DNA from: a virus
Taxonomy: Duplodnaviria > Heunggongvirae > Uroviricota > Caudoviricetes
Virus record (IMG/VR): IMGVR_UViG_2695420649_000009
Length of the DNA stretch: 6,798 bases
Strand: one strand, 5' to 3'
This document shows positions 3,001 through 6,000 of the stretch, one piece after another (position 1 is the first letter of the stretch; each line of letters begins with the position of its first letter). Made by a program: the position numbers.

Positions 3001-6000
3001 CACACCGACTGAGTGCATATTCTGTCAGCAATTCTGTTGCCCGCTCTCTGTCATTCATACTAATGCCCATTTTCCCAAGGAACGCAGAAACCCCCATCTC
3101 AGCCCGATTCTGTGTCATGCCCTGCGCGGCCATCACATCAGTGATACTCAGCGCATCTTTCGACGTTGAGGCCGATGCATCAGTCAGGCCGGGGGATTTT
3201 GGGGAGTAGTATTTCGGTAAATCTTCCAGTTTCATTTTTTGACCTGCCCTTCAAGCATTATGGGATAAATCTTCACCCCCAGACGTCCACCAGATACTGG
3301 CTGAGCACGAACGATATTGATTTCATCAAACTGCTCATCGTCCATTAGCAACCCCGCATGCGTCAGCGCATCCAGCGGCGCTTTCAGAATATTGTCCAGG
3401 TCACGGCGGCGCTTATCCGGTGGTTCTGCAATAATTTTTATTGCCAACCTTCCGGACAGGCTTAATTTCAGCCGCTGCTGGCGAACAATAAGCGCCACTG
3501 CCCGGCGATAACGCTCCCCGGCTTTTGATACAAAATATGTGCTGCCACGACGACGCCAGTAAGTGTTCACCGTCGGCGGGTAAGGTAAAACAAATTCTAT
3601 GCGCTCGGTCATTTATGCTTTCCACTTCAGAACACCCGAATTTCTCGCGTGCATTAAAAAACGAATCAGCAACAACAGCTGACTGCCGTGTTTCTCTTCA
3701 AAATCTTTTACTCCGGCATGTAGTTCGTTACGGCATTTACGGCATAACGGAATAACAAACAAATCATCAGCCTTTGTTCCCATCCCTCCCAGTCCATGAC
3801 CAATGATGTGATGCGGATCATCTGCCTGATTGCCACACGTCATGCATTTCTGCGTTTTTACCCAGCGCGTGTATACAGGCATCTCTTCCCGTTGTGATTT
3901 CTGGCGCTGGAGATACTGAGCCGGTGACTCCGGATCAACGGCAATGCTGACCACCGTCTTTTCCTGTGGTGGGTTCTGTTGCTGGTGGACGTGAGGCAGT
4001 AACGCAATATTTTTTGTGCGCTGCTTCAGTATGCTGGTGGCTGTCTGCTCTCCCGGTATGATGTCGCTTTCACTGTACACAGAGCGAATTTTTTCCGCAC
4101 GCAACCCCAGCGAACGACGTAATACCGCTTCCGGTAGCGCGTCCGCCACCTGATTGCGGACCGCCCACCAGGATAATTCAGCCAGAGATAATTCACGCTC
4201 CTGCGTACCGCTTATTGCGTGACCGATGACGTCAATCATCCATGCTGACAGGTTTTGATGAGCAAGTTGCTCGAGTGATTCGGATGTCTGGTCACGCAGC
4301 TGGTTGTCGCAGTGCCAGCACAACACCATTGCGCCGGTACCATAACGGTGAATGACGGTTTCGCTGTGATGATAATCGCCGTGTGGCCACTGGCAGGATT
4401 TAATATGGCGCAACAGCCAGTCAGACAATGCACCAGCACCACCAGCAGCACGAATCACCCGTGCGTTACTGAAAAACGGCAGCAATGTTTTGTCTTCCAC
4501 CAGCGGCTGGCGAGCGGCAGGAACGACCCCGGACGGCAGATTACGCATGCTTTTTGGTTCCGGCTCCACCAGTATTCTGCCGTTATGGAATGCTGACATT
4601 GATTCACGGCCTGGCTTAACGATAACCAGACCGAGTTCCGGTACCAGAACAGGTCGAAGTAATACCCGCACATTACCTCCAGATCCGTTGCTGGAATGTG
4701 CGGGACGGACGCGTTGGCCGTTCGGAGTAAGGGAGCCTGACGGAGATTATCCAGTGACGGTAGTCGAGGCTAAGGGCTTTTTTAACCTCGCATCCGCGCC
4801 TGCGGTAACACTGAATGAGCCATTCGGCCTGTTCTTCAGTGCATGGGGGATGCTGGTACCAATCAGATTTAAATGCGTGAGAGCGCCGCCCGTGCCTGCT
4901 GGCAAAGACGGCTGAATTATCAGAATTGTGTAGTCTGGAAGGCAGTGGCTGACAATAGCGCCATTCTCAACGCGCACAGTATAGAGGCCATCTTCACTAA
5001 AAATTTCACGTAATTCTTCGATTTTCATCAACAGAATCCTTCCAGATAAATAGCACTCCCCTGTTCGGGGTCCATCCCTCTTCTCCCTGCGCGCTACTTA
5101 AGTATTTTTGATTCTATTCCGGCACCATCTAAAACTTCAAACGCGTTGAAAATAAAAACAAAAACCCGCCGAAGCGGGTTAAGTGTGGGTGCATTGAGGA
5201 TGCCTGACCCATCAGAGGTGGCGAGGGATTTCTCCCCCGCCTGGTCTCTTACTCCTCAGGTTCGTAAGCTGTGAAGACAGCGACCTCCGTCTGGCCGGTT
5301 CGAATTCGTACCTCGCAGAGGTCTTTCCTCGTTACCAGTGCCGTCACAATGACGGTTAAACAGATGACGATCAGGGCGATTAACATCGCCTTTTGCTGCT
5401 TCATAGCCTGCTTCTCCTTGCCTTTCGGCACGTAAGAGGCTAACCTAGATTTGCCGTTCATAGATTGAGCCTCAGATTAATGTTAAGCGTCTTGCCGGAC
5501 GCGTAATGTTAACTGGGGCTTTTCTCTATCTGCCTTTTGGTGTTCATGCCTGAGACAGATAGCCTCAAGCACCCGCTGCAATTCTACTTAACTCTCCTTT
5601 TCCCGCAAACCGTTTTTATCCCCAGCGGCAAATCGAATACACCACCAGCGCCACCGCCATCGCAATTCCTACCGTTGTTAATGCTTCAGGCCAGGTCATC
5701 GTAAAATATCCTCCACGCTTATCAGTCCGTTCCGCTCCAGATAACTCATCGCCTTATCCGGTAATTTGCAGTCTGGCTTCGCTTTCCTCAGTTGCCAGGT
5801 TAACTGCTTTACCAGCATGGTTAACTCATCGACCAGACGCTGATATCCCACTGGTTTGTATTCATGCAATTTACCGGCTGGCTCTGCTGCCAGCGATACC
5901 AGTGCGATTTCCAGAACAGCAATATCCATCTTATATGTGCGGATGATGTCATGGTCGATTGTGCCCGGTATGCACAGTCTCTGTGCTTCAATAGTCTCCT

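Follow-up and report, generated by a model that had tools for sequence, protein, structure and literature searches.

A hok/mok/sok type I toxin-antitoxin cassette of the hokD/hokW type, very probably complete, in a lambda-like prophage

The minus strand of the window (the whole 6,798-nucleotide stretch of viral DNA analysed here) very probably carries, at about 5153-5608, a complete hok/mok/sok type I toxin-antitoxin cassette of the hokD/hokW type, located in the nin region of a lambda-like prophage. A hok/mok locus with its full regulatory architecture had been proposed from the DNA, and this proposal is borne out by Rfam and Pfam matches, homology to hokW, RNA folds and covariation. The kind of cassette is already known: the family has been studied since the 1980s, and hokW-sokW, a member of the same subfamily, was characterised in 2021.

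RESULTS

Reading frames of the toxin and its leader

The Hok-family ORF and its in-frame mok extension, both part of the original prediction, were recovered together with their translation signals:

5249-5404, minus strand: hok ORF, encoding a 51-aa membrane toxin (Pfam HOK_GEF)
5414-5417, minus strand: hok Shine-Dalgarno sequence GGAG, read from the sequence
5249-5461, minus strand: mok ORF, 70 codons (70 aa), in frame with hok, the same arrangement as the annotated mokW of phage 933W
5470-5473, minus strand: mok Shine-Dalgarno sequence GAGG, 8 nt upstream of the mok AUG
5264-5266, minus strand: Tyr47 codon UAC in a UACG loop, a candidate TadA-type A-to-I editing motif (Tyr to Cys)

The encoded protein matches Pfam HOK_GEF (PF01848) with E=3e-23 and 81.6 bits, against a cut-off of 22, and is identical to HokD of Escherichia coli K-12 at 51/51 residues and to HokW at 47/51, the four differing residues lying at the C-terminus (TAYEPEE in the window, VDYESEK in HokW). 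In NCBIfam, the Hok-family and HokA matches were sub-threshold only (48.5 bits vs 73), and the HokD-specific model gave no hit, so that NCBIfam contributes nothing more than Pfam. The mok GAGG is invariant in alignment A2, and the closing stem of the loop CUUACGAAC, which holds the Tyr47 codon, covaries (A2 columns 309-311 with 321-323); hokD is reported to be edited (bioRxiv 10.1101/2025.08.07.668861).

Context and distribution

The cassette has the same orientation as the early rightward genes, and the context genes found in the window encode DUF968, RusA, Q and a DNA methylase. The gene order hok-rem-DUF968-(RusA)-Q is the same in the K-12 Qin prophage and in strain GF4. Near-identical cassettes were found in lambda-like (pro)phages of Escherichia; 83 phage records match the cassette, and the leader pattern is matched by at least 120 IMG/VR stretches. 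Over 89 distinct viral cassettes, a 425-bp unit (~5590 to 5165) is strongly conserved while its flanks diverge. A related hok-type match, labelled hokD by PGAP, is present in 4942 of 5426 complete E. coli genomes, and in 3414 of the 5426 the match covers at least 80% of the 551-nt query. The latter count weakens the original premise that intact loci are rare; K-12 hokD is truncated (see below).

Promoter, transcript and terminator of hok

The transcription unit is delimited by the following elements:

5603-5608, minus strand: -35-like hexamer TTGCGG of the hok/mok promoter, read from the sequence; weak
5581-5586, minus strand: -10 hexamer TAGAAT of the hok/mok promoter, with comparative support
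5153-5574, minus strand: full-length hok mRNA, ~420 nt, with an inferred 5' end and the terminator T run as its 3' end
5153-5180, minus strand: intrinsic terminator of the hok mRNA (stem 5180-5163 plus T run), found by terminator scan

The promoter-like TTGCGG/TAGAAT pair pointed out originally is present, with a spacer of 16 nt, but its two halves differ in standing: in 127 of 128 related sequences, a TAnnnT motif precedes the conserved GGG start at a distance of exactly 6 nt, backing the -10, whereas the -35 is not conserved (TTGCGG in 34/128 relatives; per-site diversity ~0.4) and the consensus promoter scan left the pair unflagged. The strong terminator likewise described was found by the terminator scan. 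The Rfam sok model scores 112 bits at the locus and starts at 5574, the inferred 5' end of the hok mRNA; this model is sense to hok, so its match cannot orient Sok. The full-length mRNA folds with a minimum free energy (MFE) of -169.2 kcal/mol (z = -7.45).

Pairing of the mRNA ends

The 5' end of the transcript and a site close to its 3' end are complementary:

5563-5574, minus strand: tac element, mRNA nt 1-12, GGGUGCUUGAGG, which pairs with fbi
5187-5200, minus strand: fbi element, UCCUCAAUGCACCC, just upstream of the terminator

The 12-bp complementarity with one bulge noted in the original prediction holds: GGGUGCUUGAGG (5574-5563) and CCUCAAUGCACCC (5199-5187) form 12 bp around a single bulged U. 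The thermodynamic fold, set beforehand as a test, predicts this 5'-3' pairing in the full-length MFE structure, with pair probabilities of 0.90-1.00. Of 2000 shuffled versions of the 3' UTR, 14 attain the duplex energy of -21.5 kcal/mol. Within the whole window, tac has no better non-trivial partner than fbi, which leads the next site (-20.3 kcal/mol) by 1.2 kcal/mol. In energy alone the pairing is modestly better than chance, and the case for it rests on conservation and covariation. The 36 loci compared (the window and 35 related loci) cover 5 named genera as well as two unclassified Enterobacteriaceae genomes, and tac/fbi pairing is kept in them at 99.5%. Covariation is seen at position 4 (U-A in 23 sequences, C-G in 11), and the G-C pair at position 12 changes to A-U in relatives, the compensatory cells coming mostly from one clade (Photorhabdus, Pantoea) and thus representing few independent events. 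The covariation alignment omits L015, L047 and L049, whose 3' ends are broken or truncated, L022, a short contig stopping before the 3' UTR, and L005, L006, L027 and L045, which are without the 5' motif, like K-12 hokD. Among the 89 distinct viral cassettes, fbi is intact in 84.

Leader and 3' UTR structures

Four further elements complete the predicted fold:

5548-5555, minus strand: tac partner in an early metastable-type 5' hairpin, mRNA nt 20-27 (folds, alignment A2)
5515-5520, minus strand: ucb, the mok anti-SD sequence AGCCCC, mRNA nt 55-60, partner of the mok SD in the MFE structure of the full-length mRNA
5436-5441, minus strand: dcb, AGCCUC, mRNA nt 134-139, the mok SD partner in the open form (named after PMC9841398)
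5220-5241, minus strand: 3' stem-loop GGCGGGGGA-GAAA-UCCCUCGCC, present in the MFE structure and the expected protective end of the truncated mRNA

The early 5' hairpin is predicted to form, at about -17 kcal/mol, while the nascent transcript measures 30-45 nt, and 95.5% of its A2 cells are paired, mostly with one-sided changes. The 3' stem-loop, whose R1 counterpart has been described (PMC9841398), is paired in 97.2% of A2 cells and contains 2 covarying pairs. A long-range helix, CUCUUAC/GUAAGAG, is 100% paired across loci and is nearly invariant, so that it is uninformative. The stem between the mok SD and ucb carries a C·A mismatch, as does that of R1 (described in PMC9841398). An alternative stem between tac and ucb appears when lengths of 60-140 nt or the truncated mRNA are folded, and the GAGGCU/AGCCUC stem between the mok SD and dcb is present in the open-form folds. 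The open form with tac/ucb costs 14.9 kcal/mol in the full-length mRNA vs 3.7-5.7 kcal/mol after truncation, and a tac/ucb variant is itself the MFE at one truncation end point. This gap between the closed and open forms is the sole predicted quantity that changes with 3' truncation: the unpaired probability of the mok SD does not increase (0.14 in the full-length mRNA, 0.14-0.16 in truncated ones), nor is any rise predicted for accessibility of the mok AUG.

The Sok antisense RNA and its promoter

Homology to sokW places the antitoxin and its promoter opposite the mok initiation region:

5453-5523, plus strand: Sok-like antisense RNA of 71 nt, placed by homology with sokW as annotated in 933W
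5418-5446, plus strand: sok promoter, -35 TTGCCT at 5418-5423, 17-nt spacer, -10 TAACCT at 5441-5446, equal to that of sokW

A plus-strand Sok-like RNA had been expected at about 5420-5510; such an RNA is predicted by this homology, at 5453-5523 instead. It has a 14-nt single-stranded 5' tail, a long stem-loop and a terminal UUUU, and covers the mok SD and AUG; its predicted fold, a tail followed by a terminator hairpin, has an energy of -29.9 kcal/mol (z = -4.9). The hairpin seen originally at 5487-5502 is real and constitutes the tip of the long Sok stem-loop. The earlier statement that no convincing promoter for this RNA could be identified is overturned, both hexamers and the 17-nt spacer being identical to those of sokW; the consensus promoter scan left this promoter unflagged. 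In the work on sokW, the -10 was mutated (TAACCT to GAGCCG) and thereby inactivated in the "pro-less" construct, judged by primer YO-421 (PMC8621323).

Comparison with known systems

The closest characterised system is hokW-mokW-sokW of the Stx2 phage 933W and Sakai prophage 5 (AF125520; Takada et al. 2021, PMC8621323), with 92.6% DNA identity across the part that the two have in common. It agrees with the window base for base in the hexamers of the hok and sok promoters, the sok spacer, tac, ucb, the mok SD and dcb, and the bulged base is the sole difference in the fbi core (U in the window, C in hokW). In 933W, as in the window, mok is in frame, Sok is 71 nt long, the same stem-loop has a GCGUC...GACGC tip and the host element is a lambda-like prophage. 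The two differ in the part of mok that matches the Sok 5' tail, codons 2-5 (MNGKS in the window, MLNTC in mokW), in the DNA downstream of fbi, the terminator hairpin of the window being absent from hokW in the alignment, and in phage position, the window cassette lying in the nin region and hokW of 933W near attR.

The hokD (relF) gene of the K-12 Qin cryptic prophage has a terminator hairpin identical to that of the window, an fbi core that is the same except for the bulged base (U in the window, C in K-12), and the same downstream synteny (rem, DUF968/ydfU, Q/ydfT). Its homology to the window starts at the hok Shine-Dalgarno sequence, and relBE replaces everything upstream, that is, the promoter, tac, ucb, sok and the start of mok. 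By this comparison, the window holds the complete ancestral-type cassette that K-12 hokD has lost.

The hok/sok (parB) system of plasmid R1, the paradigm of type I systems, presents the same elements in the same order (tac, metastable partner, ucb, mok SD, dcb, 3' stem-loop, fbi) and the same sok promoter layout (R1-type TTGCGC-17-TATCCT; window TTGCCT-17-TAACCT). The R1 Hok is ~43-45% identical to that of the window, mok and hok are out of frame by +1 in R1-type plasmids but in frame in the window, the R1 cassette is plasmid-borne and that of the window prophage-borne, and the window leader has an extra hairpin tip of 18-20 nt (5487-5502), absent from the Rfam consensus. The Escherichia chromosomal loci of the hokC (gef) type (L014-L021) encode Hok proteins 80-82% identical to that of the window and share the tac/fbi pairing and overall mRNA architecture; they are without the hairpin-tip insertion, have TATAAT as hok -10, lie outside prophages and carry G·U in place of G-C in the second half of tac/fbi.

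A variable patch at the Sok 5' tail

Inside the otherwise conserved 425-bp cassette, a patch of 20 nt (5468-5449) is hypervariable. It takes in the start codon of mok and the codons right after it, the counterpart of the single-stranded Sok 5' tail, and has at least 17 alleles in a set of 106 cassettes, made up of 105 viral ones and the window. The allele of the window is found in 20 viral contigs, and the co-resident cassette copies examined carry different patch alleles. Sok alleles at the patch include those of the window (GCCGUUCAUAG...), of hokW (GUUCAGCAUGG...) and of the L004 type.

DISCUSSION

By analogy with R1 and hokW, we infer how the cassette would be transcribed, processed at its 3' end and toxic in its host, and what its physiological role might be. 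The weak promoter would give rise to a stable hok mRNA of ~420 nt, in which tac at the 5' end pairs with fbi and thereby keeps the mok SD bound to ucb; since the mok SD is held by ucb, the full-length mRNA would escape both translation and Sok binding. The fbi element would be lost as the 3' end is slowly trimmed back to the stem-loop at 5241-5220, after which the 5' end may pair with ucb, allowing translation of mok and, by coupling, of hok. The short-lived 71-nt Sok would pair with the mok initiation region, leading to cleavage by RNase III, and Hok would be produced only once the supply of Sok ends. Of these steps, 3' processing, RNase III cleavage and killing on Sok decay have been described for R1 (PMC9841398) and partly for hokW (PMC8621323). 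The hokW-sokW pair functions as a type I system: Northern blots revealed both RNAs, repression needs RNase III and Hfq, a sok -10 mutant turns toxic, Hok is made upon induction, and the pair alters lysis timing and phage yield (PMC8621323). In this relative, the Sok supply ends after prophage induction and Hok aids early lysis and phage release; this role may not transfer to the window cassette, given its different phage position (nin region vs near attR).

Intact architecture does not prove activity, and the cassette could be a physiologically silent hitch-hiker that is structurally intact yet causes no killing and has no effect on the prophage under natural conditions. Chromosomal hokA, hokB and hokC are reported to lack post-segregational killing (bioRxiv 10.1101/2025.08.07.668861), some structurally intact chromosomal hok loci are reportedly inactive in killing assays, and full Hok toxicity may need TadA editing of Tyr47 to Cys. 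We nevertheless consider a silent cassette rather unlikely, since (i) silencing of sok makes the near-identical hokW-sokW toxic, and this pair shifts lysis timing and phage yield (PMC8621323), (ii) HokD, the identical toxin, served as a toxic control in the same preprint, and (iii) conservation of the 425-bp unit over the 89 distinct viral cassettes, between diverging flanks, argues for selection. Greater weight, although still with considerable doubt, is given to an active cassette that serves chiefly in prophage addiction or in abortive-infection defence against other phages rather than in lysis of its own host. The R1 hok/sok system maintains its plasmid and excludes phage T4, and hok genes are ~four-fold enriched in prophages, but the sole direct experiment on the subfamily, that with hokW, favours lysis and phage release (PMC8621323), and hok is reportedly unenriched near defence systems.

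There is next to no probability that the ORF and the motifs around it resemble such a cassette by chance, or that the locus has decayed to a remnant as K-12 hokD has. The one argument for this reading is the weak consensus scores of the hok and sok promoters, and it fails because every element is present and matches a validated system, and because the window keeps the whole leader, whereas K-12 hokD is homologous from the hok SD onward only; the Rfam match, the hokW alignment, the covariation and the comparison with K-12 hokD refute it.

The complete cassette adds one mildly new point to what is known of its family, namely, the hypervariable patch at the Sok tail. The patch might, tentatively, be a specificity code against cross-repression of co-resident hok/sok systems; as a second, similarly tentative possibility, read-through from the early rightward operon, with which the cassette is co-oriented, might silence sok upon induction. 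A simpler account of the patch is relaxed constraint on an unimportant leader peptide. In a literature search that was not exhaustive, no mention was found of either a specificity code at the patch or read-through silencing of sok.

To conclude, as a discovery the locus matters little, hok-type matches being present in most E. coli genomes. Annotation pipelines mark only the 51-aa ORF ("hokD"); base-level annotation can now be extended to mok, sok and all the RNA elements, and the variable Sok tail prompts one to ask how a cell accommodates several hok/sok copies.

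Identity and gene content of the cassette

The original prediction of a hok/mok type I toxin locus was confirmed and its interpretation supported; both the type of system and its location are well known. In a profile search, Pfam HOK_GEF matched the 70-aa product (E=3e-23), and the 51-aa product has the same sequence as K-12 HokD and shares 47 of 51 residues with HokW of phage 933W, which bears out the proposed Hok-family ORF. The in-frame mok extension is likewise present, and since mok is in frame with hok in both the window and 933W, whereas it lies in the +1 frame in R1-type plasmids, such an extension is normal for this subfamily.

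Features of the hok/mok/sok cassette
5608-5603, minus strand: hok promoter -35, TTGCGG, 16 nt from the -10
5586-5581, minus strand: hok promoter -10, TAGAAT, assigned by comparison
5520-5515, minus strand: ucb (mok anti-SD), AGCCCC
5473-5470, minus strand: mok SD, GAGG
5461-5249, minus strand: mok ORF, in-frame extension of hok, 70 codons
5441-5436, minus strand: dcb (mok SD partner in the open form), AGCCUC
5404-5249, minus strand: hok ORF, 51 codons
5180-5163 plus T run, minus strand: hok terminator
5418-5423, plus strand: sok -35, TTGCCT, identical to sokW
5441-5446, plus strand: sok -10, TAACCT, identical to sokW
5453-5523, plus strand: Sok-like RNA, carried over from the sokW annotation via alignment

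A 551-nt query region matched 83 phage records, including that of 933W, which annotates hokW, mokW, and a 71-nt sokW RNA, as well as 4,942 of 5,426 complete E. coli genomes (3,414 of them with at least 80% query cover), where PGAP labels the ORF hokD. In a three-way alignment the window equals 933W in both hok promoter hexamers, the first 12 mRNA nt, the anti-SD, the mok SD, the sok promoter, and the hok SD; the core of fbi, the 3' partner of the mRNA 5' end, differs only in the bulged base, where the window has U and 933W has C, and the main differences fall in mok codons 2-5, the last Hok residues, and the region 3' of fbi. HokW is toxic and is neutralized by sokW expressed from its own promoter, whereas a sok -10 mutant is toxic; repression of hokW partially requires RNase III and Hfq, and both RNAs are detected by Northern blotting (PMC8621323). 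Upon mitomycin C treatment sokW vanishes and HokW builds up in the inner membrane, and deletion of hokW-sokW delays growth arrest and halves phage release (PMC8621323).

The Tyr47 codon of hok (UAC, 5264-5266, minus strand) lies inside the CUUACGAAC loop (loop 5261-5269), and the three base pairs that close this loop covary strongly (CG 21/UA 14 and GC 22/AU 12). A preprint reports a TadA A-to-I editing motif, changing Tyr to Cys, for hokB, hokC, hokD, and hokE (bioRxiv 10.1101/2025.08.07.668861), and judged by its sequence the window loop is this Tyr-to-Cys motif.

Promoters, terminator, and Sok RNA

A consensus promoter scan did not report the originally proposed TTGCGG/TAGAAT pair, and its -35 shows no conservation among related sequences, but TAnnnT stands exactly six bases 5' of a conserved GGG in 127 of 128 of them, supporting the -10 and a transcript start at 5574. 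The strong terminator that had been predicted was detected by a terminator scan.

Rfam RF01794, the "sok" model, hits the minus strand at 5574-5399 with 112 bits (gathering score, 59). The model starts at +1 of the hok mRNA, stops at the hok AUG, and represents the leader in sense orientation, so that the match marks the hok mRNA strand and is uninformative on the direction of Sok; the true Sok is on the opposite strand. It had been expected on the plus strand at about 5420-5510, and while the strand holds, homology to sokW moves the RNA to 5453-5523. Its promoter, for which the first reading found no convincing candidate, is present: both hexamers and the 17-nt spacer equal those of sokW, and G5453 lies seven bases 3' of the -10. 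Primer YO-421, used for the "pro-less" construct, converts this very TAACCT into GAGCCG in sokW (PMC8621323). R1-type plasmids share this layout (TTGCGC-17-TATCCT); relatives have TTGCCT or TTGACC as the -35 and, in most cases, TAACCT or TAATCT as the -10. In the predicted fold of the Sok-like RNA (-29.9 kcal/mol, z = -4.9), a single-stranded 5' tail of 14 nt precedes a single long stem-loop, which is followed by UUUU, and the hairpin noticed earlier at 5487-5502 proved to be the tip of this stem-loop, an 18-20 nt insertion relative to the Rfam consensus, hokC-type leaders, and Photorhabdus leaders.

Fold-back pairing and the proposed translational switch

The claimed 12-bp complementarity between the mRNA ends, with one bulge, is recovered in the thermodynamic fold: the minimum-free-energy (MFE) structure of 5574-5155 (-169.2 kcal/mol, z = -7.45 versus 100 shuffles) pairs tac, mRNA nt 1-12, with 5199-5187 around one bulged U, at probabilities of 0.90-1.00 for all twelve pairs. 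The duplex energy of -21.5 kcal/mol is not striking on its own, being equalled by 14 of 2,000 shuffled 3' untranslated regions, and the next-best site within the window reaches -20.3 kcal/mol. The comparative evidence is stronger. From 53 loci encoding Hok relatives in species-representative genomes, those in which both the 5' motif and the 3' untranslated region are intact, 35 in all, were aligned with the window (Escherichia, Kluyvera, Pseudocitrobacter, Citrobacter, Photorhabdus, Pantoea, two unclassified Enterobacteriaceae genomes, and phage 933W). RNAalifold finds the end pairing unaided. Over the first six positions of the helix, 99.5% of alignment cells hold a standard pair, and 23 sequences have U-A at position 4 where 11 have C-G; no shuffle reached the observed covariation, and slid registers pair at only 20-60%. 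In the second half of the helix, G-C becomes A-U at position 12 in Kluyvera and Photorhabdus and at position 11 in Citrobacter youngae; most compensatory cells come from one clade and thus represent few independent events. The fbi element is kept in 84 of 89 distinct viral cassettes.

Further elements of the R1 model (ucb, the mok SD, and dcb) were located using the definitions of PMC9841398. In the full-length MFE structure the mok SD is paired to the anti-SD, through a stem with an internal C·A mismatch common to the window and R1. Forcing the "open" tac/ucb stem costs 14.9 kcal/mol in full-length mRNA but no more than 3.7-5.7 kcal/mol when the mRNA is truncated at 5215-5205; at end point 5210, the MFE structure is a tac/ucb variant in which the SD pairs with dcb. 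In nascent transcripts of 30-45 nt, tac folds onto nt 20-27 as a metastable-type hairpin (95.5% paired across loci), and the stem-loop at 5241-5220 (97.2% paired, two covarying pairs) would form the 3' end of the processed mRNA. Since the unpaired probability of the mok SD does not rise on truncation (0.14 in full-length versus 0.14-0.16 in truncated mRNA), the folding evidence for a closed/open switch is suggestive only.

Prophage context and relation to K-12 hokD

Features flanking the cassette
6457-6798, minus strand: IS3-family transposase, C-terminal part with rve domains, running off the window end
230-745, minus strand: three tRNA genes (Met-cat, Arg-tcg, Arg-tct), then STnc100 (full-length match, 123.6 bits)

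The window belongs to a lambda-like prophage, and the transposase fragment indicates that an insertion sequence interrupts it upstream of the nin-region ORFs. Small ORFs and then the hok cassette follow this fragment; 3' of the cassette lie a rem-like ORF, DUF968 (with an HNH domain), RusA, and antiterminator Q, and the window also encodes a DNA methylase. tRNAs and STnc100 downstream of Q are typical of lambda-like and Stx-type prophages. Every one of these genes is encoded on the minus strand, so hok points the same way as the early rightward operon, which is also the case in strain GF4.

K-12 hokD, with relE upstream, aligns only from the hok SD (AGGAGAAGCAGGCTATG) onward and therefore has no promoter, tac, ucb, sok, or mok start, while fbi and the terminator are retained. 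The same positional locus is complete in the window.

Several smaller observations concern the surroundings. A 27-aa hydrophobic ORF (5616-5699, minus strand) ends just before the hok -35 and overlaps the stop of an upstream 114-aa ORF by ATGA; 933W has a similar small ORF upstream of hokW. Directly after the hok terminator, a promoter-like TTGAAG-18-TAGAAT (5111-5140, minus strand) may serve the downstream 94-aa ORF (5031-4747) in the rem position. At 2374-2415, 42 consecutive N (bases masked or unresolved) fall close to the 3' end of the long Q-domain ORF; the 308-aa ORF reads through them, making its C-terminal part unreliable.

Conservation and the hypervariable patch

Among the 89 distinct IMG/VR cassettes, the sole internal hot spot of diversity (0.24-0.38) is a 20-nt patch at 5468-5449, covering the mok AUG and first codons and, on the other strand, the Sok 5' tail. 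The 106 cassettes compared (the window and 105 viral ones) have at least 17 alleles of the patch, that of the window being present in 20 other contigs, and two genomes, E. coli CP178302 and S. flexneri CP182556, carry co-resident cassettes with different alleles. Two readings can be considered: (i) the patch could be a specificity determinant, or (ii) it could simply reflect relaxed constraint. The 15 and 20 nt flanking it were fixed by the search pattern, so only regions outside the pattern offer a fair comparison.

Per-site diversity is 0.00-0.19 from about 5590 to about 5165-5170 and jumps to 0.4-0.67 on both sides, so that the conserved unit is essentially the transcription unit, from -10 to terminator. 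This suggests a mobile module of ~425 bp that occurs in different phage contexts.
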